DNA of 62,247 nt, filler included, from Basidiobolus meristosporus CBS 931.73 (taxonomy: Eukaryota; Fungi; Basidiobolomycota): assembly GCA_002104905.1 (NCBI GenBank). It is 3 parts of 3 records of this genome, joined end to end, with 100 filler letters (N's around TTAATTAATTAA, not from the genome) between each part and the next. Parts side by side here need not be neighbours in the genome. Positions count along the whole stretch, not along the records: positions 1 to 28,393 come from MCFE01000883.1; 2 more parts are not named here. The stretch is one strand, 5' to 3'. The notes below the pieces were generated by a model that saw only the letters and a program-made list of their open reading frames with translations, was not told where the DNA came from and ran no database searches. Shown here one piece after another: positions 1 to 56,268 of this stretch (within the stretch, counting starts at the first letter, position 1; each line of letters starts with the position of its first letter). The translations under genes and the position numbers were made by a program.

Positions 1-630
1 TGGAACACCATGTTTAGTAATTACTTTGCCTGTGAGAGAAGTATACAAGGGAGGCAATCCCACAACAATAGATCATCATCCCTTTTATCAATATACTAAT
101 TTGTTGATCAGTGTGAGCACTGCTACCTGGTGCTACCTGAGCTCCAGCCTTTGCCCACAGGACACTCCCAGGAAGCCGTGCTGACAGCCAACTGACCTTA
201 GAGGCACTACTTGTGAGGAATATTCAGAGTAGGTATCTTTTATTACATTTGATTTTTTCCCAGGTTTTTTCTTGTACAGGCATAGGTACCTTTCTGTCTG
301 TGTAACTATTGACCTTAGCTGCATTCTTATCAGGTCCCTGCTAATGGAGCTTACAGTGATTTGACTTTGGAAGCTTTAGTATATTGTTTTCTCAAAAGAT
401 GTTGAACCCAGCACATACTTTTGTTAAGATGCTAACTATGTTGGGGGTTGTAGCAGAATAGTATTCCATTGACAAGCTTGTGGCTTTATTCCCCTTCACA
501 TTAGAGTGGAGTCAGACCCAGATATTCCTAACAAGCTATTGCCAGAGGTTATTACACCCATTGAACACCTTACACAACACACTTGAGAAGTGATGGACAT
601 ATCTCTCCCTTGGACCTATACACAACCACA
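1..630 (+). repeat. Gypsy family B 5' LTR, truncated by the window start
   Basis: Collinear with the 3' ~60% of the intact B LTR at 15794-16864; ends CACAACCACA and is followed by a PBS-like sequence. Confidence 0.85.
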
Positions 631-633
631 TAT

Positions 634-652
634 TTGCACCCAATGTGGGGGG
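634..652 (+). promoter_or_regulatory. Decayed primer-binding site, tRNA-Lys(CUU) type
   Basis: TTGCACCCAATGTGGGGGC lies 3 nt after the LTR. It matches the Lys(CUU) PBS TGGCGCCCAACGTGGGGC once two CpG transitions are reverted, leaving one other mismatch. Confidence 0.6.
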
Positions 653-764
653 CTTGTACAAGCTCCATAGGACCCAACAAGATTTACCCAAATACTTGAG
701 TCATTACACACTTACTGAAAAGATACTACCAATATTATAAAGATTAAAGCCCCTACCTACATAT

Positions 765-2113
765 GCAGAATGAACTCTATGCCATTATCACTCTCAAATG
801 GTGCCCAATAGTTTGATGTGAAGAATGTGGAAAGCTTCATACTCAACTGGGAGATGCTCTGCAAAATGTGCAGCCTTACTAAACAAGAAATGGCTGAAGA
901 CTTCCCCCTACTACTGCACCAATGATATTACCACTAAGCTTCTCAGACAAGGAGACATTGTCACTGACTGGGCCTTAATGAAGACCTAACTACAAGTCAA
1001 GTATGGTAGAACCCTCATATACTATGAAACTGAAGATCTGAGACACTTTGAAAGATCTGGACTCTTGAAGTTACCACTATAAGAGTTCATTCAGCAGTAT
1101 GAAGAGATGGCCAAGCCACTCCTAGAGTTCCAAGCTATAACTGAGCTTACCATGAAACTTTACCTTGCACAAGGACTTCCCCAGGACTTGGCAAAGAAAG
1201 TTGACCTACATGCAGCCAAGGATGACAAGTATGGCATTCCATGCTTTGCAGAGATGAAATATGTTCTTCTAGAGGCCAGACAGACTTCCACCTTTGTGAG
1301 ACTCTTTAAGCCTAATCTGCCAGACCTAAGAGCTTGATACAGATGGAATGGTTGCTGACAAGGAAGGAAGAAAAATCCCCACCAACTTCCAAAGAGGATG
1401 GATGAGGGCCCTTTTCCAAAGATCCAACTCAGCAACTAGAAAGATTACAGCTGATGCCCCTATATGGATATTTATACTTCAAGGCCTTATTGGCAGATTT
1501 GGCTGCATCGAACAGTTTGTTGGTCACAGAGAAGAGATGACATCCCCAATAATTCAGGAGTTATGCTCAAAGTACAAGATACACATTGCTTTTGCTACAG
1601 CTTACCTTCCTCAAGCCAATAGAATGGCAGAGAGAAGACATGGACCACTGGTTAACTCTCTAGTCACAACCTGCAAGAATAATACAACACTGTGGCCACA
1701 GCAGTTGCATTGTGCACTCTGGGCAGATAGGACTACTACTAAGAGAATGAATGGACTATCACCATTTAAGCTACTGATTGGAAATGACTGCATACTACCA
1801 GTTGAGTTAGGCACAGCCATTTAGAACTTGTTAAATTGGAAATCTAATATGCACACTGAAGACCTCCTAGCCACTTGTACACAGCAACTTGATCACCATG
1901 ACTAAAATATCAACATAGCTGCTGAACAACTTAAGGAAACATGGCTAGAGAGCAAAGTACCCATTGACAAGTCACATTCAACAAGACCAAAGCCACAGTC
2001 ACTTGGAGACATAGTAATACTCTATGATTCCACCTAAGTTATTCAAGCAAGGGAATTTGACACAGCCTGATTAGTTTGCTTTAATCCAAGCTCAAAGCTG
2101 CAAGGGGGGTGCA
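765..2113 (+). pseudogene. Internally deleted Gypsy B interior: gag-like remnant, integrase core/C-terminal remnant, PPT
   Basis: ORF 1348-1824 reads ATAYLPQANRMAERRHG...WPQQLHCALWADRTT...GLSPFKLLIG (integrase). A purine tract AAGGGGGG at 2102-2109 precedes the next LTR. No RT/RNase H between gag and IN. Confidence 0.7.
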
Positions 2114-4053
2114 CGTAGTGGGGTCAGAGTAACACCCACTGACATATGTGCTCATTCCCATATTTTCTATTTCCCAATTTTTCTACTACACTTATATTAG
2201 TTTTATCCCATTTGCCTTACTTGATCAGTACTGTGCCATAAGCTGGTGTGGTGGTGTATAGGTCCAAGGGAGAGATATGTCCAACGCTTCTCAAGTGTTT
2301 TGTGTGTTGGGTGTTCACTTGGTGCAATAACCTCTGGCAAAAGCTTGCTAGGAATACTTGGGCTCTGTCTCTGATCTAATGTGATGGGGAATAAAGCCAC
2401 AAGCTTGTCAAGGGAAAACTATTGAGCTACAATCCCCAACTTAGTTGGCGTCTGACAAAAGTATGTGCTAGGTTCAGCATCCTTTAAGATGACAATGTAC
2501 TAAAGCTTCCAAAGTCAAAACAACTGTAAACTCCACCAGCAGGGACTTGATAAGAATGCAGCTGTGGTCATTAGTTACATATACAGAAAAGTATCTTTGC
2601 CTGTACAAGAACAAACTTGGGAAAGAATCAAATATAATAAAAGATATCTACTCTGAGTATTCCTCACAAATAGTGCCTCCAAGGTTGGTTGGCTGTCAGC
2701 GCGGTTTCCTGGGAGTGTCCTGTGGTCTGGGGTTAGAAGTTCAGGTAGCAGCAGGTGGCAGCTATCACACTAATCAACAAGTCGGTATATTGATAAAAGG
2801 GATGATAACTTATTGTTGAGGGATAGCCTCCCTTATATACTTTTCTTACTGACTAAGTGATAACTAATCATGATGTTCTAGAAGGTTCCGGATATAAATA
2901 GAAATCTTAATGAGCTCAGAATGACCTAAGAATGTTTGAAGTAGGTGCCAGAAGGTTCTATGAGGCACAGCACATTCAACCAATCAGCAATCAGTACTCT
3001 GAAACCTGTGTAACATAGGGATACCATATATGATATGGAAATGGTAGGGATGGTGACACAGGTTGAACATGTGTCACGGGTACTGGTGTGGGTACTTGCC
3101 TAATATAGAAGTACCTTCTGCTAGTAATCTTACATAAAGTGGGGGATAACTTGTGCAATAAGGTAAGCAGGTGTGATAGTCAACCGGCTTATGGGATAGT
3201 ATTGATCAGGTAAGACAAATGGGATAAAACTAATTTACCAAACTGTGTCACCATTCCTACCAATTTCATACCATATATGGCATCCCTATGTTACACAGGT
3301 ATTAGAATACTAATTCCTGATTGTATGCATGTGTGGTATCTCTTAGAGCCTTCTAGTACCTACTTAGAACATTCTTAGCTCATACTGATGTCATTAAGAT
3401 TTCTATTTGGCCACCAGAACCTTCTGGAACACCATGCTTAGTAATCTCTTAGTCAGTAAGAAAAGTATACAAGGGAGGCTATCCCACAACAATAAATCAT
3501 CATCCCTTTTATCAACATACCAACTTGTTGATTAGTGTGATCACTGCTACCTGCTGCAATCTGAGCTCCAAGCTTTGACCACTGGACATTCCCAGGAAAC
3601 TGCAATGACAGCCAACTGACCTTTGAGGCACTACTTGTGAGGAATACTCAAAGTAGATATATTTTTTACATTTGATTTTTCCCAAGTTTGTTCTTGTATA
3701 GGAAAAGATACTTTTCTGTCCTTGTAACTATTGACCACAGCTGCATTCTTATCAAGTCCCTGCTGGTGGGGTTTACATTTGTTTTGACCTTGGAAGCATA
3801 AGTACATTGTGATTTTAAAGAATGCTGAACCAAGCATATGCATTTGTTAAGATGCCAATTAAATTGGGGATTGTAGCTTAGTAATTCTCCCTTGACAGGC
3901 TTGTGGCTTTATTCCCCTTTGTATTAGAGATGAGCCAGAACCCAAGTATTCCTAGCAAGCTTTTGCCAGAGGTTATTGCACCCGGTGAACACCCCACACA
4001 AAACACTTGACAACTGCTGGACAAATTTCTCCGTTGGACTATACACTACCACA
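2114..4053. repeat. Composite of B LTRs: direct piece 2114-2246, inverted LTR 2247-~3233, direct piece ~3238-4053
   Basis: Each segment aligns to the reference B LTR (15794-16864); orientation flips at AGCTGG|TGTGGTGG and again near 3233. Confidence 0.8.
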
Positions 4054-6259
4054 CCATCATAATACCAGCAGCTTAGAATTAGTGACTCACTTGACAATCT
4101 GATAATAGGATCACAACAGCATTTTGCTAATTCTACTGCCAAATACAGTTATAAACTTGACAGGGTTTGATTGGTGCTGTGACAATAATGGCATGTCTTT
4201 GTTGTGGTCTTAATGCACTCTACAGTTATCTTAATTTGATCTAACTGTCCAGCACATCCAGTTGCCTTATATGGCCAAAAGATTGACGGTATTTTGATAG
4301 CCTCATTGCAAGTCTCTGATGGCATTATTGCAGCAGTATGACAGTCTACAGCTGTTTCTGTGTAATGCTACCATACCAATTTACCATATGGTGTTTCCTT
4401 TTTCTACCTCCCCTTGTGCAATTCAAATATTCCACTGTAAAATCACCCCTCTTTATTTGCTTACCCACTACTACTTTAGGTATTCCACATATGGTTTGAA
4501 TAAAAAAAAACTATTGCCTCCTGCTTACTAACCTTTACAATTGAACAGACCTGCCACAATTTACATACTGCTATTGCCTCAACTTTATGTCTTCTTAGTG
4601 TGATACTTGCACAGCTACCATGTACCTTGGGCTGCTGTTATCATATACATCTTGCAAACATATGCTTTGTTGCTGCCACTTCTGCCATGAATATTTACTG
4701 CACATTTGCATGCACTTTTTAGTATTGAGCCAATATATTCCTTCTTCCTGCTGGATTCTAGTCCCCCTTATATGTGACCTCTGGCTCTTGCTTGTGTGAG
4801 TTCCATATTGAATGGTGTGAAGTTGGCTTGTGGCCAAGTGAAGTCCAGTACAAGTTGGTAGCATTGTCCTAATAGAAATTAGCTGCTTGTTGCACCCAAC
4901 CCAGGTTTGCACTGCTTAACTTATTACCCATGCACTGGGGCTGCTCAGATTCTTAATGCCATACACATAGATATCTCCATATGCATATCTGTCCACATTA
5001 TTTGCAACTCTTCATGGCTGTCCCCTATGTGCTAACTTTTCAAATCCATGACAGACTTGAAGGTTATATTCTTGCAGAGATTAGGATATGATAGTACCTG
5101 TGACTTGACTTGACTTCCTGTCTTGCCACACATCTGCTCCATAAAAACTCCCAAAAGATGAAGCAAGACCTAATATTCTCCACACACTAAGCAAAATGGA
5201 CTAGAGAATGGATACAGTAGCAGCAGAGATCTATGTGTCAGCTTTATGCTTGTAGCATAGCCGCTCAAATCCCTTTACAAACTCCTTGCACAGCAGCTTT
5301 AGATGTATCTAGTCAGCATTGGTAATCAGCTTCTGGCTAAATATTCTTACAATGTCCACATATGACTCCCAATTCTTCCAATGTACTCTTGGTAGGAATG
5401 TCTTCAGAGCACCACTTGAATAAATACATATCCCGCTCATCCAGTTGTGCATTTGTATTGTTGCATATGTGTATGAATATTGATTGGAGCCTGTGAGAAG
5501 TACTTAGGCTAGCAGATACTCTGTAATGACTTGTCAAATCTTTCAAATTTCTCCAGTATTTCAAAGGGCTCATTCAGCTTGAAGCACCCCGTGTACAATT
5601 TGGTTATTATTATAGGGAGTTGTTGAAAAGCAAATACATTACTCCCAGTGGAAAGCTTTTGCTCCAATAGATACCCTTTATCCCAAGTATCTCTGCTTTC
5701 TGATTAATTCCATATTCTGGCCCATGGCTTACAGCTTGCCAACTTTGCTGCAATTGCATGCTGACTTCTGTAGGTTCTCTCTGTTGAAAGATAATGTTCT
5801 TAGTGTTGATGTTTTGGCTATAAAAATGTGTGTGTGTTATGGAGTAAATCCCTTGGATCTCACACATTTAACAGCAATACCGGCCATTGAGCCCAGAAAA
5901 GCCTGATATCTTGCTGATGGCTGGGGTATCTCCAATGCAGATAATAATGTTTGCTTTTACATGACAGCCACTTACTGTTTACCTGCTGGAAAGCATACAA
6001 AACTTCTCTGGCAATAGATACAGGTAGCTATCCAGGTTGGACAGTGATCTGGGCCCAGATACCAGTGAGACTACCATCAGATTCTGCTATGATACTGTAA
6101 GATAGGTGGCAGATTCAGGCTGATGAGAATAAGTGGCCAGCATAATTTGGTGTTAGAGTACTTATATAATGGGAATCCATCAAGTGCTAAGGCCAAGGCC
6201 TGGTCATATAAGCCTTCAATGTAGACCTTGCTTCTTGGCTGTTTGCAATGTTGCCATTA

Positions 6260-8223: not shown

Positions 8224-10110
8224 CTACACTAACATTAAGCCCAACCCCACACTCAACAAGTGACTCCAATAATATCCACCATTCAATAAGTATTTCTGCT
8301 GTAACACAAGTAATTCCATAAAAGTCCACCACTTAAAAATTATTTCTGCTGCAACGTTCTGGTCCCACAACTTTGGTAAGAACTCAATGGCACTATGCCA
8401 CTGATCATTCACCGGTTCCCACATGTCCTGGTCTTCAGCCAGCATTGCAAGGTCTAGCACCTCATCTGCCAGTCTTTGCAATAAATCCTTGCCACATTTA
8501 AGTGAGTCTTCTTGAGCACTGCTCTTGAAGCAGTGCTGCAACCTCTTGGTGCACCTATGAATGCTCCAAAATTCTACTGAAGGCATTGCAATAGTCCTTT
8601 GGGTTCTTGACATTAAAGCCTTGTTGATCAGTAAAATCATCACTCTGTCAACAATGGAGCACATGGAGGCTGTGGTAGATAAATTGCCTTTTTCTGCAAA
8701 CACATCTACCTTGCTGGAGTGTAGCTCAACTGGCTGCACTTCCAACTCTTGTGAAAACAGCTGCTTTCTTGTTGGTGATACTTTTTGGTTATAATGGGAT
8801 TCAGTCTGTTCCAGGCTTGCAGTGTAAATTGGCAAGAACTGTAAGTTTGTTACATGCTTCCCTGTCTCAGGCTTAGGTAGACATTTTTCTCTTTTCCTTA
8901 TCACTGCGAGGTTTCTCACTGCTACTTTGTCTGAGTGCTTATTATAATGACCCACATATCTGTTTTGGCCTGCATATCTCTTGCTGGCACTCTTCTAGCA
9001 ACCTGATGTTTCTTTTCAGCTTGTTTCAAGCTCTTAACTGTAGTTGTGACAGGCTCCTGTAAAAGCTGCTGGTTTTTATTGCTGCCAGGTCCTTCACTCC
9101 TACTCTGACTGAGTGCCTCTTGAGTGGTCCTATGCTTTTTCCTTGATAAATGTTGTGCTGGTGTATCCGTGTCAGCCTGCTTGTCCCTAGTTGGCACTCT
9201 TCCAGCTACCTGATGTCTCTTTGATGCCTTTCTGGAGCTTTTGACACTGCTTGTAATGTGCTCCTCAGGAAGCTACTGGTCTTTAACCATGACACACTTG
9301 TACTTCTGCCTATGATAGTTTCTGCTACTCTTAAGATACTTTCTTAGCATACCAGTGCTGGCGCAAAATGAATTTGCCCATTTGAATCCAGGATAATGCT
9401 CTTAGAACAAGTTAAGTGCATTCTGCTTGGGCTTATGTCCCTGAAAGTCCCATGGTATGCCAGCCTTAAGGTGATTGCATGCTGGAATTCTGATGGCCCC
9501 TTCAATATTTGACCACTCTTCATTATTGCACTCAATGGCTTCACAGTTCTTCAATGTCTTTAAATTCTTTGGCTTCAGTATACATTGCATTGTCTCCTTC
9601 CCATGCTGTGATAGGCTTTCTGTGGGCTTTATTTTAGAACACTGTTGTTGTGCTTCAAAGACTGTAGAGTATTCCCCGGCTGTTACATTGGGAAATGGCT
9701 CAATTCTTGGCTGCAGCATAGAGCTACCTTAGTTCCTTCATTGTAGCAAAGATATTGCTTTCTTGACCTAGGATATTTATTGCTTTAAAAATATTATTTG
9801 CTTATCCTGTTTCTGGACTATTTCCTGATTTCTCTGGGTCATTGCATCTATCCTATCTGCCACTGCACCTGATTGCTTCATTAATTTTTTGGTATGAGCT
9901 GGCAACATACTTACTAATATGGGTTGTGCCAAAGTTATGATGGCTACTTGCTAGTCTTCAACCAAGGGGGCTGTGTTTGCTACATTCTCATCAGCCAGAC
10001 CATAACAGTCAGCTTGTGGCTTTGCAGAGGTTCTCACTTGCCTACCTGACTGAGAGCCTGAGGGGTCTGCATCATTATCTTCAGCGGCCACACTGTCAAC
10101 ATGGCCTGGA
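8224..10110 (-). pseudogene. Unclassified repeat family G, copy 1 (decayed gene-like ORF)
   Basis: ORF fragments 8224-8955, 8922-9197 and 9402-9719 are homologous to 46899-48289 and to 55350-56268. Confidence 0.6.
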
Positions 10111-14520: not shown

Positions 14521-14897
14521 GGCCAACTTGACCCACCAGCTTATGGATAAAGTGATTGAAGATAGACTCACTAGGCCACAAGTAACAAATCATTTAAAAC
14601 ATCTCAGATCATAATAAGAATGATGTTTTGTGATTATTGGTCTGATTAGGAGTAAAGTACAAGCTGGTAATATCACCTAAATACATGTTGCAAGAGTTTG
14701 AAGATAGTAAAGATAACTGCAAGAGCTAGTATTTTGTATGGTTTTCATATGGGTTTGGTAAAGCAAAACTTATAATATACTTAGGGCAGCTCCAGTAACA
14801 TATTTACAAGTTTCTGGCTGTTTGGATTACTTTGAGAATTCTGTTCCGCTTGGTAACTGATGTTATGGTGAATATATTTAAGTGGATCACTGCAAAG

Positions 14898-15284
14898 TGT
14901 GGGTTATTACTGACTGTACTTGGTGAGTGGGAGAGCTTGTAGGTCAAGTCAGTACCACTTGGTTCAGAATAGCTTCCGATAGAAGGTAGCAAGGTAATAA
15001 AGACTTCTGTTTATTTCGTCCAAATCTTGTTGTTCTTCCTGGTTCAATTGGGTAGATATATATATTACTTGGGGGGGCTTAGACAATAGACAATGTGTTA
15101 TAAAATAGGGGTGTGAACACCTTCCTGTTATGGTAAGTGTTCTAACTAGATAAGGGCAGGGATAGGAGGGGAGGACGCGTGGGGGAATCATAGGGAGGGT
15201 ACTGGAGGACTTTGGGTAGGACTCTGGAGGGAACTCTTGGGAGAACTCTTGGGCAAAGAGTGGGTACTACATTGAGTACTCACA
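14898..15284 (-). repeat. Gypsy A 3' LTR
   Basis: Direct repeat of 22360-22746. Confidence 0.97.
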
Positions 15285-15328
15285 TATCCCGGGGGTTAAG
15301 TGGGAGCTTCGTCCTCGAAGTTCTTTGA

Positions 15329-17573
15329 CTAACTCGCTTCTCCAGGATTGATTTCGTTTACGGAGCATGGGGAGTCACCGTAGTACCATTGCTGGTTGTC
15401 ACTCGCGAGGGGATTGCGGGCGAGTACCTGATACCATTCGGCAGCAGAGTGGGGTGCGGCCTGTGTTGCTCGAGGGATGTTTTCCACAGAGCCAAATAGT
15501 TGGCAAACCATAGGGTTCTGGGTAAGTTCCTTGGGAGGGTTGGAGAACGAGAAAAGGTGCAATAGCGCGATAAACTCTTGCTACTTTATCTTGCAAACAT
15601 TATTGGGGCTTGTCCTTTTCGTGTTCAATATGACGGCGAGGGACCTTTTGAAGAGGGCGTACACTCGGTCAGCAGTCACCTGTTGTCAATAACAAGTTTT
15701 TGCTTCTTCTGAGACGTATTGTAGTTCTTCCGTAGAAACTGTGGCGCGATCAAGGTGCTTTTGTACTTGCCTCATGGTTTCTACAGAATCCGCTGTAGTG
15801 GGGTGACAGTGACACCCACTGACAGATGTGCTCATTCCCTTATTTTCTACTTCCCTATATCCCTACTACACTCATTTTAGTTTTATCCCATTTGTCTTAC
15901 CCAATCAGTACTATCCCATAAGCCGGTTGACTATCACACCTGCTTACCTTATTGCATAAGTTACCCCTCACTTTATGTAAGATTACTAGTTACAAGTGCT
16001 TCTATATTAGGCAAGTACCCGCGCCAGTACCCGTGACACATGATCAACCCGTGTCACCATCCCTACCATTTCCATACCATATATGGTATCCCCATGTTAC
16101 ACAGATTTCAGAATACCGATTCCTGATTGGTTGGATGTGCTGTGCCTCTTAGAACCTTCCGGCACCTACTTAGAACATTCTTAGGTCATTCTGATGTCAT
16201 TAAGATTTCTATTGAACTCCGGAACCTTCTGGAACACCATGATTAGTAATCACTTAGCCAGTGAGAAAAGTATATAAGGGAGGCTATCCCTCAACAATAA
16301 ATCATCATCCCTTTTATCAATATACCAACTTGTTAATTAGTGTGATCACTGCTACCTGCTGCTACCTGAACTTCCAACCCTAGACCACAGGACACTCCCA
16401 GGAAACCGCGCTGACAGCCAACTGACCTTGGAGGCACTACTTGTGAGGAATACTCAGAGTAGGTATCTTTTATTATATTTGATTCTTTCCCAAGTTTGTT
16501 CTTGTACAGGCAAAGATACTTTTCTGTCTTTGTAACTATTGACCAAAGCTGCATTCTTATCAAGTCCCTGCTGGCAGAGTTTACAGTTGTTTTGACTTTG
16601 GAAGCTTTAGTACATTGTCATCTCAAAGGACGCTGAACCCAGCACATACTTTTGTTAAGACGCCAACTAAGTTGGGGATTGTAGCTCAATAGTTTTCCCT
16701 TGACAAGCTTGTGGCTTTATTCCCCTTCACATTAGATTAGAGACAGAACCCAAGTATTCCTAGCAAGCTTTTGCCAGAGGTTATCGCACCCAGTGAACAC
16801 CCCACACACAAAACACTTGAGAAGTGTTGGACGTATCTCTCCCTTGGACCTATCCACCACCACACCGCGGCGGTTTCTTTGGCTTCTTGGAGTTGGACTT
16901 TGTACTGATTCCTGAGTTGTCCTATGGTAAACCACTGTAATAGTTGTAACACAGCAACTTGGTGGATTGCATGGGTTAACTGGCCAGTGTATTTAATCCG
17001 TTCGCGTATCTTCTCTAAGATGGTTCCTTCTTGGAAATGTGGTTCGAGATGTTCGCAAATTTCTCGGAGGAGTCCTTTGATCGGGAGTTCTACTTCTGGT
17101 GCTCTTGCAGCTTGTACCAGGTCTGCGTATACCTCAACAACCGTGGTACCTATTAATGGCAAGTATGCAACAAAACAGGGGGGCTCTTGAGGTCTCGTGA
17201 GGGCGCAACAGTTGATTCCTTGTGTCTTCTGTCTGACTGTGTCCAGTATGGATACAGGAATCAGCGCGGTGTCCTTCTCCTTAATGATCAAGGAACCTCC
17301 TCTTAGGTGGTACACGGTCTTCTCGGGTAGTATCTCCATGCTTTGTATCAGCGTGGGTAACTTGTCTTGTCCCTCTCTGATTGTGTCTCGAATTAGCGTG
17401 ACTGCTCCGGCAAACAACTCTTCATAGGTGGCTCTTGTCGTATGTAACGCTTGTACCATATCTCTTAACACTTGCAGGTCGGTTTCGTTTTCGATATCAT
17501 CTTGGTTCTTGCTAGTGGGAGGGGTATCGCCAGTTTTGGGTGAACTGTTTCCTTTGGCGCTTTCCATATGCAT
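15329..17573 (-). pseudogene. Extra ORF3 of Gypsy A, ~389 aa reconstructed, unknown function, interrupted by a solo LTR
   Basis: Removing 15794-16864 plus one CCGC joins ...EAKETAA to DSVETMRQ... in frame. The frame then runs into ORF 15329-15562 through only one TGA and one TAG. Confidence 0.8.
15794..16864 (+). mobile_element. Solo family B LTR (1071 bp), 4-bp TSD CCGC
   Basis: TGTAGTGG...CCACCACA; CCGC at 15790-15793 and 16865-16868; retains more CpG than the other B copies. Confidence 0.92.
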
Positions 17574-17702
17574 TCTTTTGTTCTCCCCTTTGGGCAAACT
17601 CCCTCGCGCATATTATTTGTACCTATATTGACTAAAATCTCCTCTAATAAACTTTGACTGTATCCCGTGTCTTCCTCTATCCTTGTCCTGATAATTGTTT
17701 AA

Positions 17703-20700
17703 TCACACTTCGGTCTCAGTGATGATTGGTGGATCATCATGAAACGGTTTCAGATGGGCTGGCGCTACGTTGCTGATTGTCTTATTATTCAGGGTGATGG
17801 TGTACTTTGGTCCGTGGTCCAAACTGATAACGTTGCATGGGCCAATCCATCGGGGTGTAAATTGTGGGCAGAACTTGAGGCCTGCAACAGTTTGGTCATA
17901 CCACACCTTATTGCCTGGTTTCCACTTTTGTCTTGTTAGTTTCTCATTTTTGGGTGGAGGGGGAAGGTGCTTGTCGACATTTTCAAATACTTGTATGTAT
18001 AGGTGGGCGATACGGTGTATCAACCTTTCTATATAGTTGTTATGTGTTGTCAGGGGGACACCTTCCATTGTCAATCCAGCTTCCTCCCACCACTTGGGTC
18101 TTTGTCCATATAGGATTTCATATGGGGAGAAACCCGTCGTTTTATTTGGTGTGGTGCGCATTGCTAGGAGTGTCAGTGGGAGCAGCTCGGCCCATGATTG
18201 GGGAAGTTCCCAGTGAAGCTTCTCCAGTATGCGGCAACACGTCTGGTTCATCCTCTTGGTTAATCCGTTAGTCTGGGGGTGATACGTGGCCGTGAAGACT
18301 TGTTTCACGCCCATCATTTTGTACAGGTGGGCCACGGTGTTGTTCAGGAAGGAACCACCATTGTTGGACAGGAGTATCTGAGGATATCCGTGTCGGCAGA
18401 TGAGGTGTTCTAGAATGAATTGGGCGGTTGTCTTCTGATCTTTATTGCGGACGGCTTGGGCTTCTACCCACTTTGAGAAATAATTGGTAACAATTATTAT
18501 GTATCGTTCTCCTTTCTTTGTTTTCATAAAGGGGCCAACAAAGTCAATCCCTACTCGGTGGAAGGGCAGGTCAACCGGTATTGGTGCGGTTGTCCCTATC
18601 TTCTGACTCCGGTTGAATCTTTCGCAAGTGGTGCATCTTTGTAATGTATTTGTAACGTTGGTCATCATTTTTCGCCAATAAAACGTTTTTCTTAACATCT
18701 TATATGTTGTCAGGGGGTTAGCGTGTCCTAATGACATATGTCTTTCTTGTATGATTTCTTCACGGGCTGCTAGTGGGGGTACCTTGGCTCTGGACTGTCC
18801 TTGGAGGAACCATAGTTGATTTTCTTGTACTTTGTACTGACACCATTTCCTTTGAAATTCTCTCTTCTGTTTGTTTGTAACAATGTGTTTGGGATACCTC
18901 CCTTTCTTTTTAAAGCAGATTACGACCTTGTACTCATCACTGACACGTATTTGGCAAACGGGATAGAGACTGAGGAAGTCTGCGTCCTGGTGTTTCTTGC
19001 CAGCGTGGTGAATTATTTCAAAGTTGTATTGCTGTAGTCATAGGGCCCAACATGCTAGTCGGCCGGTAAAGTCATTAGTTTTCATCAGCCAGACCAGTGC
19101 ACTGTGGTCCGTTACTATTGTGAATTGGCGACCATGTATGTATGTATGGAATTGTTTAATTGAATAAACAACAGCCAGATGTTCTATCTTGGTAACGGGG
19201 TAGTGGCGTTTGTGTTTGTTTAGCAAACGGCTCACGTAACCAATTGGGTGGGATTTGCCGGGTTGGTGGTATTGTCCCAGTACGGCGCCTATACAGGTGA
19301 GGCTTCCATCACAGTTAATAAAAAATCTTGCATCCCAATTGGGAAATTGTAACACTGGCGGTGACGTCAGGGAATGTTTCAGCTGATCAAATGCTCTCTT
19401 TTGAGGCTCCAACCATACAAAACACTGGCCCTTTTGCGTCAATTCATATAGGGGGGCTGCTATCGTCGCGAAGTTTTTGACAAAGCGGCGATAGTAGCCG
19501 GCTAATCCTAGGAATCCCAACACTGCATTAATGTCCTTTGGTGCAGGTGCATTTTGAACGGCTTTCAGGAGTGACGTAGATGGGTATATTCCATCTGCCG
19601 AGATCTTGTGGCCCAGGAACACCAATTTTGTATACAGGAAATGGCACTTCTTGGGATGTAGTTTGAGTTGGTTCTCGAGGAGGGATGTCAGGATACATTG
19701 CACGTCGTGTATATGTTCTTCTACATTGGGGGAATATATCGTGATGTTGTCCAGATACACAAGGGCGCATTCCCATCGTAGATTTCCTAGCACCTTGTCA
19801 ATCATCCTTTGGAACGTAGCGGGGGCATTGCACAAGCCAAAGGGTAGTTGGTTCCATTTGTATAATCCAAACAATGTTATAAAAGCGGTTTTGGGTCAAT
19901 CTTCTGGGGCTACTTTTACTTGCCAATACCCGGAGATTAAGTCAAGAGAGCTAAAATATTTAGCTCCGATTAATCTGTCCAAGAGGTTGTCTATTTGCGG
20001 TAGCGGATACACGTCCTTCCGGGTGACGGCGTTCAATTTCCGGTAGTCGATGCAAAAGTGTCGCTTTCCGTCTTTCTTTGGGACTATCACTACGGGGGAG
20101 GCCCACGGAAACTGGCTCTCTGTAATGATGTCGTCTTTCAATAAAGTTTCAATTGTCTCTTTGATATAGTCTGTGTCAATTTTCAAATTCCTATAGGCTT
20201 TTTGCTTGATGGGGTATTTGTTGGCAAGGTGGATTTGGTGATATACCCCAGGTATATGACCAATTACTTGGTTCTTAGAGAATACTCGGGCAAGCGGACG
20301 TATTCCTTCTAGGAATTTGTCTTGTAACGTAGGCGGTAGACCAGGGTCCACATCTAGTTTGGGGAGTTCTTCTTCTGGTTCTTTGTTTGGAGGTGGTCCT
20401 TGGTCGTTTCTGTCAACTTCCTCTAAGTTTAACAATGGCACTCCTCTAGGCAATGTCACCATGTGTTGCCCGTTGTTAACCACTAAGCATTTCAGGCTTT
20501 GCGTTTCAAATTTTGGTGGTATCCATACTTTAGGGATTGAGATTCCTTCCAGTTGCTTGGATGCTTTTGCTGCGGTTATCATTCTTCCGCTTGTTGAATA
20601 AGCTATTGGTGTTTCTAATGAGATCACCGTCTCACTGGCAGGTGGTATTTTTATCACCTTTTGTGTGATGATCGGAGACTGCAACGGTTTCACCTCTTCA

Positions 20701-21545
20701 ATTGTCACACTGTTGCTACGCGCCTTGCTCTCATTGGTGATATGAATCAGTGGGATACTCTTGGTATCCCACCTGAGTTCAGATGCACTGTAAAGTATAT
20801 CCATCTTATGTTGGATAAACCAACTCTCGCCAATGAGTAAGCCATTGGCTGCAACGGGTAGGACCACGACATCTTGGCGTATTATCAAGTTGCCTAGCCA
20901 AATAGGGCAATTAGGCACCACACCTATCGTTGTATCCAGTTGGTCATTTGCTAGCCGTACTCAAATGGTGTTGTTGGGGACTATATTTAGTTTTAGACGT
21001 TTTGCTAATGACTCTGACATGATCAACGTAGAGGATCCTGTGTTGATAAGGGCAAGAATCTCCTTATTCTCTATATGTACCCTTACGTATGTACCTTTAT
21101 TTGGTTTTTGCAGGACCGTCTGGTTGACATGGAGGGTTGTTATCTCCTTCAATCCCTCTATCAGTTCCTTGACTAGAGCCGGGGCCAGTCCCAGTAAATT
21201 GGTTATTGGGAGGGTTGCCTTGGTTTGCTCTAGTACCTTCATTATGGGGAATAGGCCATGGGAAGACGTGCTAGCGTTCTTCGTTCGCTTTAACACTTCT
21301 TCCCAAGGTTCATTCCGTACTTCTTCACCTAATTCCACGCTCTTTCCTTTTGACGGAACCTCTACTACAGGTTCCTTTGCCTCCTCTCTAGAAGCATCAT
21401 GTCAACGCTTCTTCTTCCGCACTTTGATTGTCCTGACCGGAGGGCTTAGATTGACTGAGTCCCGTTGGCCTCCTGGCAAGGGACTCTGTCTTTTGACGCC
21501 TTCTTCTCTTTTGTGTCCAGTATGGCTTCTCTTCCGTACCGTTTT
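17703..21545 (-). pseudogene. pol: Gypsy A pol (protease, RT, RNase H, integrase; no chromodomain)
   Basis: One reading frame broken only by four TGA codons (21402, 20961, 19896, 19038). Motifs ALINTGSS, FCIDYRKLN, LDLISGYWQ, YLDN, TDHSAL, H-H-C-C, GIDFVGP. Confidence 0.95.
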
Positions 21546-22318
21546 TCACATTCATGGGCCCGGTGACCTACTTCTCCACACACATAACACGGATACTGTT
21601 GTCGCGGTTGTTCCATCTGTTGGGTCAGGACTTGAACCTGGGCCTTTAGATCTACAACAGCTTCCCAGAGTTTATCACCTTCTTTAGGGACTTCTTGGAT
21701 ATTGTTGATCGAGAGTTCTTGGACCTTTTGCCGTAATTCCTCTAACTCACGGTCTTTTGGGGAGGCAATTTTTCTTTTCTTACGGGGGATCCCTGTCCTT
21801 CGATCATTCGTATCACTATAGGGTAGCCCCCATAGCAAGATGACCCCTTGTACTCGTTCAACCAACTCTTGCAACGTTTTACATCCCTGTTGTTCTTTGG
21901 ACGCCCTACGTCTTATTTTGTCATCTAAGCCCATGATGTAATACCTCATGAGCTGTTGTTCGGCGATTTTGTCCTTTGGGAGACATTGAACTCGTTGGAG
22001 AAACAGTTCAGTGTAGGCTTCATAGCTTTCACTGCTTTTCTTCCGCAAGGACAGTAGAAGGGCTTTGTAGTGGTATCCTTTGGCATATAGAAAGCGTGTC
22101 TTGTAGGCTTCTTCTAGTGCATCCCAGTCATCTTTGACTGCGTCTTCCAACCCATAATGCCATTGCCATGCTGACCCTTCCATATGTCTTGCAAACTCTC
22201 TTACTTTCTTATTGTCATCCCATCCAGCATCAACCGCAACTCTCTCAAACTTATCAAACCACTCAAGGGCTTTCTCTCTTGTTCCCTTGTATGTTTTTAG
22301 TTTGATTGTAGTAGTCAT
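21446..22318 (-). CDS. gag: Gypsy A Gag, 290 aa, with CCHC zinc knuckle
   Basis: Intact ORF starting 41 nt after the 5' LTR; CYVCGEVGHRAHEC. Confidence 0.9.
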   Translation of the reverse strand: MTTTIKLKTYKGTREKALEWFDKFERVAVDAGWDDNKKVREFARHMEGSAWQWHYGLEDAVKDDWDALEEAYKTRFLYAKGYHYKALLLSLRKKSSESYEAYTELFLQRVQCLPKDKIAEQQLMRYYIMGLDDKIRRRASKEQQGCKTLQELVERVQGVILLWGLPYSDTNDRRTGIPRKKRKIASPKDRELEELRQKVQELSINNIQEVPKEGDKLWEAVVDLKAQVQVLTQQMEQPRQQYPCYVCGEVGHRAHECEKRYGREAILDTKEKKASKDRVPCQEANGTQSI

Positions 22319-22337
22319 TACCTCACTTGTGCTTATT

Positions 22338-22355
22338 TCCGCAGAGACGGCACCA
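22338..22355 (-). promoter_or_regulatory. PBS, probably tRNA-His
   Basis: TGGTGCCGTCTCTGCGGA lies 4 nt after the 5' LTR; complementary to a tRNA ending -AGACGGCACCA. Confidence 0.65.
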
Positions 22356-22359
22356 AATA

Positions 22360-22746
22360 TGTGGGTTGTTACTGACTGTACTTGGTAAGTGGGAGAGCTT
22401 GTAGGTCAAGTCAGTACCACTTGGTTCAGAATAGCTTCCAATAGAAGGTAGCAAGGTAATAAAGACTTCTGTTTATTTCGTCCAAATCTCATTGTTCTTC
22501 CTGGTTCAATTGGGTAGATATATATATCACTTGGGGGGGCTTAGACAATAGACAATGTGTTATAAAATAGGGGTGTGAACACCTTCCTGTTATGGTAAGT
22601 GTTCTAACTAGATAAGGGCAGGGATAGGAGGGGAGGACGCGTGGGGGAATCATAGGGAGGGTACTGGAGGACTTTGGGTAGGACTCTGGAGGGAACTCTT
22701 GGGAGAACTCTTGGGCAAAGAGTGGGTACTACATTGAGTACTCACA
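22360..22746 (-). repeat. Gypsy A 5' LTR
   Basis: Adjacent to the PBS; direct repeat of 14898-15284. Confidence 0.97.
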
Positions 22747-22799
22747 CAAAGAACTTGCTCAGAGTTTTCCAAGAGTTGTATGTATTGACACAAGTGACT

Positions 22800-28393: not shown

Positions 28394-28493
28394 NNNNNNN
28401 NNNNNNNNNNNNNNNNNNNNNNNNNNNNNNNNNNNNNTTAATTAATTAANNNNNNNNNNNNNNNNNNNNNNNNNNNNNNNNNNNNNNNNNNNN
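28394..28493. other. Artificial contig linker
   Basis: 44 N + TTAATTAATTAA (stops in all six frames) + 44 N. Confidence 0.95.
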
Positions 28494-33420: not shown

Positions 33421-36400
33421 CAATTGCCTTAATCTATTCTAAAGATGACTTCTACCAGCAAACAAAGCAATACCAACATCTTCCCTGTAAAGGAGAGGTT
33501 TGATGAGAAGAACTACAGACTTTGGAGAATCAAGATGCAGATCCACCTTGAGGAAAGAAAGCTTTGGAACATAGTAACAGGAAAGGAAGTTGAGCCCAAA
33601 GGAACAGCAGAAGATGTGGAGAAGTTTCAAGAGAAGGAGAGAAAGGCCTTCAATGCAATATGCATCAATGTGCAAGACTCCTTCATTGGACAAATCCATG
33701 CCTCAAATACTGCCAAAGCAGCATGGGAATCCTTAGAAAAGATCTTTAGAGCAAAGTCAGTATCAAGCAAGCTTTACTTGAAACAAAAGTTCTTCAACAT
33801 GAGAAAAAAGCCAGATGATGACATGCTACAACTCATTACCAGAATGGAGACACTTGCAGAAGAACTTTACAGTATTAATGCTGGTGTAGATGATGAAGAA
33901 AAGATACTCTGTCTGCTTTGCAGCCTACCAGACGAGTATGAGCCACTCATACTTTCTTTTGAAAGCAGAGAAGACAACTTGACTTTAGACTATGTCAAAG
34001 GAAGACTTCTCCATGAAGAGCTCAGACGTAATGATCAAACAGAGAAAATTGAAGATAATGCTTTATTCAGTTCAGAAAGGCGTACAGAAAAGAAGGGAAA
34101 GCAACAAAACCAAAGAAAACCTGGCTGCTGTAACTACTGTAAGAAGCCAGGACACTGGGCAAGAGAATGCAAGAAGAAACAAGCAGACGAAAAACAGAAA
34201 CTAGAGCAGGCAAACCATATAACTACTGATGAACAGTTATTTGTCACTGTACAAGAGAGTGCAAGTAACCAAAGTAATGAATGGTATATTGACTCTGGAG
34301 CATCACAGCATATTTGTGGTATAAAGGATTGGTTCAGCAACTTAAAGACTATTCCCGTAAGAAAGGTTTATCTGGGAGATAACTCTGCATTGGAAGCTAC
34401 CGCTAGTGGGTCTATACAGCTAAATATGAGTGATAACTCAGGGGCAACAACAGCAAAACTGACTGACGTACTCTATGTACCTGGAATAGCTAAGAACCTA
34501 CTCTCAGTCAGTAAAGCAACTACTCAGGGACTGAAATTTGTTTTTACTAAGCTGAGCTGCTCAATATTGAGTGAAAATGGACAAAAATTAGCTTCGGGAA
34601 TCAGAGATCACAATATATACAAGTTACAATGCAAGATCTTTGTCCTTGAGTATGTCAACATTGCTGAAACTGATGAAACCAACTGGGAGACGTGGCATAG
34701 GAGGCTAGGACACATAGGGGAACAGAAAATGAGCCAATTGGTGAAAAATCAGCTTGTTTTGGGCCTAAAATACTCAATTCCGATCAAATTGAATGTTTGT
34801 AAGGGATGTTCATATGGCAAACAAGCTAGGCAACGTTTCAAGAGCTCAGAAGGCATCAATACTACCGAAATATTGGCTATTGTACACTCAGACATATGTG
34901 GCCCCATGAGAACACTGTCCTTTGGAGCCAAGAGATACTTTATGACGTTTATTGTTGACAAGACAAGATATACATGGGTGTACTTCCTCAAAACAAAGGA
35001 TGAAGCTTTAGAGACGTTTAAGCACTTCAAGAACATGGCAGAAACACAAACTGGCTGTAAATTGAAGGTACTACGAAGTGACAATGGAGGAGAATACTGC
35101 TCAAAGGAGTTTGCAAAATACTGCTTATCTACTGGTATACTTCAACAGACCACAGTTCCTCATACTCCACAGCAAAATGGAGTAGCAGAACATGCAAATA
35201 GAACAATAGTAGAGATGGGAAGATCTATGCTACATGATAAGGGAATGGACTACAAGTTTTGGGCTGAATCTGTTGCTACCGCTGTATACATTAAGAACAG
35301 ATGCCCAACAACAGCACTACGTGATTCTACACCCTTTGAAGCATATACAGGCAAAAAAACCAGATCTCCAGCACCTCAGGATCTTTGGCAGTGATGTTTT
35401 TTATCACATCCCTGACAAAAAACGCTCAAAGTTGGAACCAAAGAGTAGGAAAAGGGATCTTTCTTGGGTATTGTGAAGATACTAAAGGGTATCAGAGTGT
35501 ATGATGGCAAAGTTCAGAAGCTGATCAAGAGCAGGGACGTTGTATTTGAGGAGAATTCAGATCAGAAAGCCACAGAAATCATTGGCCAGCTGCCTGATGA
35601 TGCAATCAACACAAATGAAGAAGATACGTACCAAATCCAGCCAGAGATGGAAGATACTTCTACAAGTTCCAGATCGGAACAGATTATCCCAGTTAGGAGA
35701 TCTACCAGAATAAGAAATGCCCCTGGATCCTGGTGGCAGACATCCAATGATAATCGAAGAAGCTTATCTTGCCTTATGTGCCAAACCTCAGAATCTGGAA
35801 CAGGCAATGCAAGGTCCAGATGCTACTAAGTGGCAACAAGCCATGCAGGAGGAGTACCAATCACTGATCAAGGCAAAAATGTGGGAACTGGTAGATTTAC
35901 CAAATGGGAGAAAGCCAATAGGATGTAGATGGGTCTACAAGATCAAGATAACCTCAAATGGTGACGTTGATAAGTACAAGGCTAGATTGGTAGCTAAAGG
36001 CTATTCCCAGATCCAGGGACTAGACTTTAAGGAAACATTTGCTCCAGTTGCCAAGTTTAACTCTATTAGGACAGTTCTAGCCCTGGCAGCTGTACACAGT
36101 CTAGATCTACACCAAATGGACGTCAAAACAGCCTTTCTAAATGGGGATTTGCAAGAAACTATATATATGGAGCAACCAGAAGGTTTTACCAATCCAAAAG
36201 GCCCCAAAAGGTGTGCAAACTTAGAAAATTGTTGTATGGGCTTAAGCAGGCACCCACAGCATGGTATAACAAGATTGACACATATCTAGAGGAAATTGGG
36301 TTCTCTCGTAGCACTGCAGATCACAGTATAATATGTGAAACAGCTCAAAAAGGGTGTGATCATCCTAGTTCTTTATGTGGACTACTTAATTATAGCTACA

Positions 36401-38020
36401 AGTGATCAAGAGGCACTTAAACAGACAAATCAGATCTCTTCAGCAAGTTTGAGACAAAAGATCTTGGAAAATTGAGCTATTTTCTTGGAATTGAGGTCAA
36501 ATTTGACATAGCTACGCAGAAAATTGTGCTGAATCAGTCTAAGTACATCAGGGACATTCTTAGACGCTTCAAGATGGAAAATTGCAAACCTGCAGCAACC
36601 CCTATGGACAATAACCTGAAATTAAGCAAATCTTAGCCAGTTATAGATGAATACGGCTCAAATATGGACAAAAACTTTCCCTATCAATCAATGGTTGGTA
36701 GCCTAATGTACTTGATGGTGTCTACACGTCCAGATATTGCAGTAGCAGTTGGAATAGTCAGTCAATTCATGCAGAATTATGGATCAGATCAAATTGCAGC
36801 AGTTAAGTGGATTTTCAGATATCTACAAGGTACCATAAATATGGTACTGGAATACTCTGGAGCAGCTAATAGGCAAAAATTTGATGGTTATAGTGATTCA
36901 GATTGGGGTAGGGATCTGATTGACAGACGCTCTACCACAGGCTATGTATTTCTTTATGCTGGTGCAGCTATTACTTGGAATTGCAAGAAACAACCAACTG
37001 TGGCACTATCTACAACTGAAGCCAAATATATGGCTGCATGTCAAGCAACTAAGGAGGCTATATGGCTACAAAAATTATTCAAAGACTTAGGTTTTAATTC
37101 AGGTGAACCAACATGTATTTACAAGGATAATCAAAGTTGTATTTCATTAGACTTGTTCCATCGTACCGTGCCAGGGCGCGCGGCGCAATCCGCGGTTGCA
37201 AAGAACAATCGGGCGCGATATTATAGCTACCAGAAGGCAGGATTGTTCTTGGACAATTTTGCACTATGCGGGACAATCTTGCACACTATGGCACAATCTG
37301 ACACGATGAGGTTGGTGCAGATGATTGCGCCAACTTGTAATGCTTGCATCACGTGCGCGATCGGATACCGCTATAATGGCAGGTAAAATCCGGTATTTGG
37401 ATATGTTTCTTTAATGTAAATGGAAATAAATGTGTATGACACTAAAAACTACACTGATACTTACCATTTTGGTTACCCTCACTCCAATTGGACAGTATCT
37501 CAGTGGTTAATTGGTGCAAAAGTATCCTGAAGCTGGCAGCCCCCAATTGGCTCATTGACTACTGAAAAAGCTACCTGATTTGCCATCAAATATCCCATTT
37601 AGCCCATTGAGCAAGTAAATCCCTGATCCTAGTGATTGGGCAAGGTGTCATAGCTAGCACGCAAGCAATCGTGTAGGTGCAAAACAGATCCAATAGCTGC
37701 ACTGGTATTACAGATGACGTATATATATGCAGGGTGTTTATTTATAGGGGTTCTGTCTCAAATGTGAGACGTCCTTGATATTACTTATATCAAAAATTTG
37801 ATGATCACTGATTTGCGATGGCTTGATTCGGATTGCAAAAAAAAAGGGCTGTTGGGATCATTACAAATGTGAGCGATTCAAAGCAATTGCATCATCTTCT
37901 CCTGGGTTTTTTTCTCACAGGGATTACTACTGAAGCATTTGGTAGTGACTCACTTTGCACACCTATACTACTTCCTGGCTGACTATCATCTTGGCTACTT
38001 GTGTATTCGTAGTCAGTATT

Positions 38021-39148
38021 TTAAGTTGATGAGTGCAATGCTGCAGCTTGGCCGCGCTGAATCGCTCCGACTGAACCAACTGAACCGGCCTGTAGTGCTA
38101 CGCGCTGACGCGTTCTTTTACTTGCCAAGGGCTCCGGTGGTTGAGTCACTTCATGTTGGTCATCATCAGTCAGTTCACCAGAAGTAACTTGCTGATGGTC
38201 AGGCAAAACGGCACGCGCAGGCGCGCCTTGACGCATTGAGATGGCCCTTGGCTGAGTTCAATGTGATGCCGCATGTTGACGCGACTCGGTCCGCTCCAAT
38301 GGACTTGTGTCTAAATGAGCAGTTTGGCGAGTTCTTGTAGTTTTGCTCTGAAGCGCGCACGTTGACCCAACGCGCGTTGACTCAATGCGCGTTGACTCGA
38401 CGCGGGGCGTTCTGTTAAAGGGTGTTGGTGTAGTCTGGACTGACGTGCGCCGGCGCGCTGTGGTTGCAAGAGATGGTAGGGAATCCAGCAAGGCATGCTG
38501 GCGCGATCTGGACAATGTTGCTTGCAGTCTGTATTCTTCCTCCTGAAGCTCACCATCTGATTCCTCAAGGTATTCACTTACCCTCTGTCTGATACTTTGG
38601 AGCTGTTGCCTGGATGAGTCCTGTGTATATTGCTCTCGGAAGCCACTTAGCTCTACTAATATATCACGTAGTACATCAGTCATTTGAGGCAAAAACTCAT
38701 TCAAAATCTCTTTGGTTCCCAAAGTTGTGGCACAAACGGACGCGTCCGGCCCGTACTGTGCAAATTGCGCGCGAAATTGTTCCCGCGCGGCTTCCTTGTC
38801 AAATCCCCTCACTCCCAGCTCATTCTTGATTTCAATACTTGTCTTGTTATATATCTTTTTACATACATTGGCTGGCATCTTGATGTAGAACTCATGCCAC
38901 AGCTTTCTACTCAAATTCTTCCATCTTTGTCGACTCTCTGAGGTATCTAGTTCTGCTAGATTAATCAGTAGTGCCCAAATATCTGTATGAAGGCTCATCA
39001 TAGACACTTGGGCCATACTAAAATCATTTGGCGAGAACTTGAACGGATCCAACATTGACTTCTCCGGTCCGGACCGCGCTAGTGAGCTGGGGGATGGGTT
39101 TTGTCTGGGTTGTACTAAAGATGAGTTGAGGCTTGGTATGGGGACCAT
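38021..39148 (-). pseudogene. Harbinger partner ORF, ~375 aa with one internal TGA; possible Myb/SANT-like DNA-binding protein
   Basis: ORFs 38258-39148 and 38021-38236 share a frame, separated by a single TGA. SRQRWKNLSRKLW resembles a Myb/MADF recognition helix (weak). Confidence 0.65.
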
Positions 39149-39507
39149 AGCAACAGATTTGGATACTTATACAGCAGTATATTGGCATCAACCTGGTCTT
39201 ATATGAAATATATATGAAAACTTAAGTGATTGTTGAATTTTCCATATATTATGCATGATGCATCTTGGATTGCGTTGACACGGATCAGATCACATCAATC
39301 GCAGATTTCCTAGTTGATTATAGACCTATGATTAAAGCATCAATAAAAGTACCAAGGCATTGTTTGCGGATGATTTTTGCGACATAATGATGGGATACAT
39401 GGCAATTGATGGAGATTTAACCATAATGTGTTAAAAATCAGATAAATAACGCAGATCGCGCTGAATCAATTCAAACCGCCTCCATACGATCATCCATCAA
39501 TTTTAAT

Positions 39508-40392
39508 ATGACTTACTCATCTGAATGGTCTTTTCTCATCAATCCCATCACTACCACTGGATTTCCTTTTGACACACTGGAGGAGATCTATTCCAAGTAC
39601 TGTGGACCATCAACCCCAATCTACTCAAGGAGATCCCTTGTTAAGCTTCTCTGCTATTACAAGAACTATTGCCCTACAAGGTTTCATCTCACCATCCATG
39701 GCAACAAAAGTCCTAGAAGCTTTCATTCCCAGCTGACAGCAATGGACAACCACCTTGCAGAGGGTATGAATGACTTAGAGCAAGCTTGGAATACTAGGTT
39801 CAGAAGCTCCAATAGACTTCCATATCCCAGAGTGTTCAGCAACAGGTTCCATATCAGGAGTATTTTGGATACCTTCCCAGTGAGGATTAACAGACCTTCT
39901 AGAGGGCAGAGGCACTTTTATTCCGGCAAGTACAAGGCACACTGTGTGAAGTTTCAAGCACTGTCTGACATTGAGGGTAACATCATCTGGTTTGGTGGGC
40001 CATTTGCTGGAAGTAGGCATGACAAAGCACTCTGGGTAGAGAATCATCCTGAATTCAGTAGAGGGGAGAAATGTATGGCAGACTTGGCCTATATAGGAGA
40101 GGATTGTCAGAGATTAGGATGTATTACAGCTTATAGGAAGCCAAGGAATGGTGTGCCTAGCAGGAAGCAGAAGCTCTACAATGAGATATTTAATCATTTC
40201 AGAGTGAGGGCAGAGCACACATTTGGATAACTGAAGAGATTCAGCATATTGGCAGGTAAATACAGAGGAAAGTCATATATAGGTGAAAACAGCAGAATAG
40301 GTAAAATAGTTAAGATACTTATTAATGCACAGTATGTTCATACAAGAAGACATCTACTGAGAGAAATGTGTCTGGAGCATTATGAAGAGTAA
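39508..40392 (+). pseudogene. Harbinger/IS5-type DDE transposase (DDE_Tnp_4-like), 294 codons with one internal TAA at 40228-40230
   Basis: ILDTFP (D), YSGKYKAHCVKFQ, GSRHD, ADLAYIG (D), RVRAEHTFG (E). The frame continues after the TAA as LKRFSILAGKYR. Confidence 0.88.
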
Positions 40393-52499: not shown

Positions 52500-52599
52500 N
52501 NNNNNNNNNNNNNNNNNNNNNNNNNNNNNNNNNNNNNNNNNNNTTAATTAATTAANNNNNNNNNNNNNNNNNNNNNNNNNNNNNNNNNNNNNNNNNNNN
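52500..52599. other. Artificial contig linker
   Basis: Same N44-TTAATTAATTAA-N44 pattern as 28394-28493. Confidence 0.95.
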
Positions 52600-55349: not shown

Positions 55350-56268
55350 AAAAGACTTTGCAGATCCTTAATATCTTTTGATCTTTAGGCATGGGTATAA
55401 ACACCACAGTCTCTCCCTCTCATGCAGTCATAGGTCTTTCTGTGGGCTTTATCTTTGGGCACTGTTGATGTGCTTCAAAGACTGTGAGGTGTTCCTCTGC
55501 TGTTATATGGGGATATGGCCCAGTTCTTCTTTGTGATATTGAGCTACTTAAGTTCCTTCTCTGCAGCAAAGATACTGCATTCTCTACCTAGGATATTGAT
55601 TATTTGACATGCATTATCTGCTCATCCAATTTGTGGACTATCTTGTGATATCTCTGAGCCTTAGCACCTATCCTGTAAGCCACTGCACCTAATTGCCTCA
55701 TTAATGCTTAGTAAGAGCTAACAGCATACTTGCTATATGGGCAGTGATGATGTTATAATATCCACTTGCTGGTATCCAACCAGATATACTGCATTTGCTA
55801 CAGTCTCATCTGCCTGAGCATTATGGGCAGCTTGTGGCGCTGCATTTATTCACAATTGCCTACCTGACTGAGAGCCTGAGGAGTGTGCATTATCACCTTC
55901 AGTGGCCACACTGTCAACATGGCCTTTTTTGGACTTAGCCCTGCGTGCTGCACTGAATATCAATGCAAGCTGTTGTCCACTGTTCTTCTGCTGCTGTTAG
56001 CAGTGGGGCTTGCTAAGGAACCAGACAACTTTGCTTTTTTTGCAGCATATAAACATGGAAGTGCATCAAACCAAAGGGGGAAATAGTGCTACATATACAA
56101 GTGTATATGGTGCTATAGCTTTATTTATAATGCCTACAATGGTAGGTCATCATTGAATCTACATTCATGCAAATGCAATATCCAAAATACAAGACTGTCT
56201 AAAATTCACATGAGTATGGACAAAAAAGGGATATAATTGCATTACAACATTGAGTGTTAAGCTGTTTG
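55350..56268 (-). pseudogene. Family G, copy 3 (5' part and upstream region)
   Basis: Reverse complement aligns with ~46600-47350. Confidence 0.6.

Follow-up and report, generated by a model that had tools for sequence, protein, structure and literature searches.

LTR retrotransposons take on new functions, among them fusogens, nucleases and RNA export, through additional open reading frames in the env position, the majority of which have no known role. In the plant Ty3/Gypsy elements Athila and Bagy2, such a frame, aORF-3S, lies between pol and the 3′ LTR, and splicing has been reported for Bagy2 (PMC7264820). The ORF3s of bdelloid rotifer LTR retrotransposons fall into DEDDy exonuclease, GDSL esterase, coiled-coil and transmembrane types according to PMC5408684, which also states that the third ORF of an LTR element is as a rule a unit of its own with a spliced message. 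CERV of the C. elegans element Cer1 is described in PMC10309623 as an orphan protein of 517 aa, made from a spliced mRNA and required for the export of genomic RNA. Literature searches listed nothing on the element family described here, and the passages covered of PMC6431247 and PMC5006619 add nothing specific.

The window analysed here is the whole 62,247-nucleotide stretch of DNA, filler included, from Basidiobolus meristosporus CBS 931.73. It contains a complete Ty3/Gypsy LTR retrotransposon, element A, on the minus strand from 22746 down to 14898, with gag followed by pol (in the order RT, RNase H, integrase), direct LTRs and a target duplication. The features of the element, in its own 5′ to 3′ direction, are as follows.

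22360-22746, minus strand: 5′ LTR of element A, 387 bp, TG...CA
22318-22359, minus strand: leader, containing a sequence-based candidate primer-binding site that opens with TGG near 22355
22326 and 22321, minus strand: splice-donor-like GT-R-A sites right at the gag ATG (22318), sequence-based candidates
21446-22318, minus strand: gag, with Pfam matches to Ty3 capsid, Retrotrans_gag and a CCHC knuckle; no internal stops
17703-21401, minus strand: pol, with Pfam matches to RT, RNase H and integrase (H2C2 and rve) and a protease-like region by inspection
17574-17702, minus strand: spacer between pol and ORF3, 129 nt, 43 codons in the pol/ORF3 frame
16865-17573, minus strand: 5′ part of ORF3, 236 codons, stop-free
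15794-16864, plus strand: solo LTR of family B, 1071 bp, TG...CA, in the orientation opposite to element A
15329-15789, minus strand: 3′ part of ORF3, with two internal stops and the terminal stop at 15331-15329
14898-15284, minus strand: 3′ LTR of element A, 387 bp

The two LTRs of element A differ at 6 of 387 places (98.4% alike), and the 5-bp target duplication CTTTG lies outside both, at 22747-22751 and 14893-14897. Pol is in the −1 frame relative to gag; it probably begins further upstream than the counted 21401 and overlaps the end of gag, and no canonical slippery site was found at the gag-pol overlap. The three internal stops of pol, at 20963, 19898 and 19040, are all TGA, and an extra TGA in the pol frame (21404-21402) stands immediately upstream of the counted stretch. 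The chromodomain at the integrase C-terminus that distinguishes chromoviruses was not found in element A: a Pfam search of the pol end and the spacer, with X at stops, gave no match up to E 10, and Pfam does detect a chromodomain in comparison locus L006. The 44 nt preceding the 3′ LTR lack a clear purine-rich stretch, and Rfam gave no match over the element. Both flanks match Copia-type repeats elsewhere within the window, so element A likely sits inside an older element.

The reverse transcriptase of element A is at most 53% identical to any comparison protein. In an RT tree of 117 sequences, a subset of the comparison proteins and loci, it forms a long branch that is sister to one protein (0.80), within a weak group (0.72) that also includes a Rhizophagus element, other elements and some plant elements. 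Relative to the rotifer elements it is an unrelated RT lineage as far as this tree, which has no rotifer reference, goes.

The original prediction had placed a third ORF downstream of pol on the same strand, with its first in-frame ATG at 17573, and had attributed its fragmented appearance to a 1071-bp solo LTR with the target duplication CCGC. The frame and its ATG are as described, and CCGC is present at 15790-15793 and again at 16865-16868. When the solo LTR and one CCGC were removed (1075 nt), the expected continuous frame was obtained, comprising 1170 nt, or 389 codons and a stop, without a frameshift and with the two predicted internal stops, a TGA at 15688-15686 and a TAG at 15583-15581. 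In its length, its location downstream of pol and ahead of the 3′ LTR, and its strand, which is that of pol, ORF3 belongs to the described class of sense additional ORFs (PMC7264820, PMC5408684).

The ORF3 frame in element A is coding, beyond chance, and it is dead in the present copy. It contains 2 stops where 18.9 ± 4.0 are expected, and a count of two or below was reached by none of 20,000 dinucleotide shuffles, even when the best of their three frames was taken. With gag-pol as the training set, the codon-usage score was 0.081, compared to −0.013 ± 0.017 for shuffled sequence, with none of 3,000 shuffles as high; the remaining five frames of each ORF3 part scored at most 0.022, and the codon-position composition of ORF3 matches that of gag-pol. 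The density of stops is also no different from that of gag-pol (2/389 and 3/1523; Fisher p = 0.27).

The solo LTR that splits ORF3 is 87-93% like three other LTRs in the window, at 1-630, 2245-3233 and 3239-4055, and its target duplication is 4 bp long versus 5 bp for element A. The stretch 1-4055 is a deleted B-family element with an LTR at 1-630 and an integrase remnant at 1330-1824; its second LTR is interrupted by the inverted B LTR at 2245-3233. No second copy of ORF3 occurs within the window. The likely order of events is that element A entered a Copia remnant, that a B-family element then entered ORF3 and collapsed to the solo LTR, and that point changes gave ORF3 its two stops.

Seven public runs, from three organisms (A, B and C) and two studies, contain part of this stretch, and the best-matching run may be the window's own sample. 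Four of the seven were compared with the window, organism C coming from another study. Among the 15 joints listed (of 197), four cross the solo LTR: three of these amount to a net loss of 1075 nt with the frame intact (nine contigs of X1 and one of X3), and the other, in one contig, shifts the ORF3 frame by 2. Uninterrupted copies of element A, which had been proposed as a check, are thus present in two organisms, A and B, with ORF3 unsplit. The organism C pieces are 78% alike over 15261-15753 and 87% alike over 17385-17964; that organism has no cover at 17256-17379, a gap that carries no weight either way. The joints in two organisms, together with the diverged pieces in a third, indicate that ORF3 belongs to the element family, with a presence beyond a single transduction, the contigs being a record of presence and not of copy number. 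An ORF confined to the present copy would have spoken against the original prediction, and the ORF3 region is instead found in three organisms.

The same comparison shows how the copies have changed. Among 12 listed indel places (of 23), none falls in ORF3 or integrase, four fall in the spacer and eight in the LTRs; the four longer contig pieces that overlap ORF3 contain one to four gaps each, with the place within the piece not given. Transitions make up 301 of the 326 differing places in X1, the solo LTR included. Overall there are 656 differing places, of which 40 are listed, 28 of them in the 3′ part of ORF3; 20 of these 28 are at strict CpG sites, a pattern of mostly CpG decay, and 11 are at third positions (p = 0.31). 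The two internal stops of ORF3, each of which had been proposed to be a single C-to-T step, differ in this respect. The TGA falls on a CpG-type site at which the copies vary, and the TAG is a transversion private to the present copy, from which 99% of the X1 depth and all of the X3 and X5 depth differ by that transversion.

It is likely that ORF3 has been kept by selection as an element-maintained gene. A captured host gene or a functionless hitch-hiking relic is a very unlikely account of the same frame, given that ORF3 and integrase have similar summed contig depth in X1 (ratio 1.14, a rough guide only) and that pieces occur in three organisms, that its codon usage is of the gag-pol type, and that a word search of 5.8 billion clustered proteins returned no cellular relative. 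In that search, the 5′ part of ORF3 gave 0 of 287 candidates at protein lengths of 130-417, and the 3′ part, with X at stops, gave 0 of 189 at lengths of 269-2000.

The other searches gave the same picture of an orphan. The whole 5′ part and its residues 28-236 had no usable match in the ESM Atlas, and Pfam, PHROGs and PDB sequences gave nothing below E 0.03; a Herpes_glycop_H row (E 0.13, 11.3 bits against a cut-off of 20) was rejected as noise. None of 12 pattern matches in viral contigs and none of 117 in metagenome contigs was confirmed as ORF3, and searches of viral contigs with integrase and RT alone found none. No ORF3 match was present in 97 Gypsy loci with an RT alignment. No enzyme match that would point to an ORF3 of the DEDDy or GDSL kind turned up in Pfam, PHROGs or PDB.

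The comparison loci contain third ORFs of their own. Two sister Gypsy elements have homologous soluble third ORFs of 253 and 304 aa (L032:7772-8530 and L039:6284-7195; mutual E ~1e-18) that have no Pfam match and are unrelated to ORF3, and thus form another orphan ORF3 family. Further ORFs behind integrase, candidate element genes, match a TatD DNase (L063:5716-7785), a GDSL lipase (L002:7295-7780) and a viral fusion glycoprotein (L081:3669-5681).

The absence of a signal peptide, transmembrane stretch and furin site, on which ORF3 had been judged not to be a classical Env, was confirmed. The best 19-residue hydropathy values of the two parts are 1.45 and 0.93, with no transmembrane stretch; no R-x-K/R-R furin-type site is present in ORF3; and no signal peptide was seen by inspection, the N-terminus being polar. 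An Env or small fusogen serving cell-to-cell spread would agree with ORF3 in position and strand only, and ORF3 also has no match to a fusion-protein family, though Pfam does detect one behind integrase in L081; we regard this reading as extremely improbable. With pI values of 5.7 and 6.3 for its two parts, the protein is acidic, and it has no basic cluster. It had further been described as soluble and helical with a coiled-coil-like middle. Crude heptad scores did not confirm the coiled-coil middle: the segment immediately after the junction scored 0.47 and residues 36-63 scored 0.55, compared to 0.59 for gag. Single-sequence AlphaFold2 models hint at an N-terminal tail that is polar, then helices and one short beta hairpin, with the rest mostly helical, at unreliable mean pLDDT values of 38.6 (5′ part) and 40.6 (3′ part) and with the long helices below 50. 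Foldseek found no match at E 0.001 for the 5′ part against PDB or for both parts against BFVD, a result that is meaningless at such pLDDT.

Set beside the described systems, ORF3 resembles aORF-3S in its position, its strand, its presence in most family copies and its lack of similarity to known proteins, and it differs in that some aORF-3S have transmembrane domains and are called env-like (PMC7264820); no sequence link between them was found. Like the rotifer ORF3s (PMC5408684), it is family-specific, in the env position and not Env, and the coiled-coil type is nearest to it in kind; unlike those types, it has no DEDDy or GDSL Pfam match, and its crude heptad scores lie below that of gag. 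The additional ORFs of Retand and Grande likewise lie between pol and the 3′ LTR, but in the descriptions given in PMC11963269 and PMC7264820 they are antisense with a TRP28 domain, whereas ORF3 is sense with no Pfam match.

ORF3 is in phase with pol, the pol TGA (17705-17703) being followed by 29 sense codons, a TAA (17615-17613), 13 codons and the ATG at 17573. This shared frame, interrupted only by the pol TGA and one TAA, speaks for a reading in which ORF3 extends Pol at its C-terminus as a tethering or targeting domain fused to integrase and replacing the chromodomain, either without a break in live copies or by way of programmed read-through. The three internal lesions of pol are likewise TGA, the listed spacer indels of organism C are +1/−1 pairs that keep the length (possibly alignment artefacts), and folding of the spacer is slightly stronger than that of shuffled sequence (z −1.7, 8 of 200), all of which would suit such an extension. 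Two stops within 30 codons, however, have a probability of about 0.3% at a lesion rate of 5 in ~1,910 codons, and ORF3 would be in frame by chance one time in three. In addition, the second stop, the spacer TAA, is away from a CpG-type site; the spacer has a GC content of 0.38 compared to 0.45-0.49 and lacks coding bias (codon-usage score −0.02, weak for 43 codons); and 12 of 118 integrase-bearing proteins extend at least 100 residues past integrase, none of them like ORF3. The two stop sites (17705-17703 and 17615-17613) are not among the 40 differences listed of 656, which is uninformative either way. We therefore consider a Pol extension to have little probability, and ORF3 very probably stands alone.

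A stand-alone ORF3 would be translated from a spliced sub-genomic RNA. Splicing is the route we favour by a small degree, on the precedent of the elements described in PMC5408684 and PMC7264820, with an internal promoter as the alternative. The spacer holds six YAG candidates, at 17688, 17677, 17658, 17644, 17632 and 17623, and these, with the two donor-like sites next to the start of gag, would suit splicing of the kind used for env; donor-like words of such short length are common by chance. The ATG at 17573 has an A at −3. Against splicing, each of the YAG candidates is followed by an out-of-frame ATG, at 17611, ahead of the ORF3 start, and no branch-point consensus was found in 17560-17800.

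If used, these donor-like sites would also pose the problem that CERV solves in Cer1, the best-studied functional model of an orphan Ty3/Gypsy accessory ORF expressed from spliced RNA (PMC10309623). By analogy, ORF3 could act in the nucleus as a regulator or RNA exporter of the Rev or CERV type, made from spliced RNA and exporting the unspliced genomic RNA. Against this, ORF3 is acidic and has no basic nuclear-localisation-like cluster, and neither Pfam nor protein searches linked its sequence to CERV. According to PMC10309623, CERV has five exons, three of them shared with gag and in its frame, a basic candidate signal (KRKK) and a G-protein-like domain, none of which is seen in ORF3. An export factor is accordingly unlikely. 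A tentative preference goes to a protein-binding cofactor acting in particle assembly or trafficking. The ORF3 product, predicted to be soluble, acidic, mostly helical and non-enzymatic, would bind other proteins and help the element's own replication, with no membrane fusion and no catalysis. This role is reached by exclusion, as no fold, relative or motif names a partner or compartment.

Across the window, CG is strongly depleted (observed/expected 0.20), and CA (1.31) and CAG/CTG (1.53) are not. RIP-type CpA decay and plant-type CHG decay were rejected on these values. Plant methylation has a CHG pattern, unlike the CG-only depletion of this window, which would fit CpG-only methylation. Inside element A the CpG ratio is 0.58-0.86, compared to 0.02-0.37 in most neighbours, a contrast that would be in line with an anti-silencing or counter-defence role for ORF3, in which it would protect its element against small-RNA silencing or methylation at CpG. 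The youth of element A, with its nearly identical LTRs, explains this retention, and a nearby Harbinger-like ORF has a ratio of 0.85. That ORF belongs to a divergent PIF/Harbinger-type pair:

38258-39166, minus strand: DDE_Tnp_4 transposase (Pfam), one half of the pair
39427-40230, plus strand: partner ORF, 302 aa, with no Pfam match, a CpG ratio of 0.85 and no relation to ORF3

Copies of the element A family are moreover decayed mostly by transitions (the X1 count above, and 20 of the 28 listed ORF3 differences at strict CpG), and ORF3 has neither a basic cluster nor a DNA-binding domain. The anti-silencing role that the original prediction found attractive thus gained no positive support, and we hold it to be doubtful, though slightly less so than an export function.

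The explanation that we put forward, with confidence evenly balanced, is that ORF3 is a family-wide, stand-alone accessory gene, kept by selection and expressed from spliced RNA, whose soluble, acidic, helical protein would aid replication. ORF3 then represents a new accessory-protein family, an orphan common to three organisms, in a divergent RT lineage. A bolder reading, which we think improbable, is that it founds an undescribed family for a deep-branching, chromodomain-less Gypsy lineage, either as an integrase extension steering insertion into repeat-rich chromatin or as a counter-defence against CpG-methylation silencing. ORF3 would matter more if it were a true integrase targeting extension or a counter-defence protein.

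Other parts of the window hold further features. The N runs at 28394-28493 and 52500-52599, which flank a 12-base linker, are not biology. A repeated region at 8224-9728 on the minus strand has open frames of 256, 116 and 108 aa, with inverted copies near 46984-47882 and 55395-55707; its 256-aa frame has no Pfam match, and the region is possibly an extra ORF of another element. A fairly intact Copia element lies at 33433-37386 on the plus strand, with a 653-aa open gag-protease-integrase frame.
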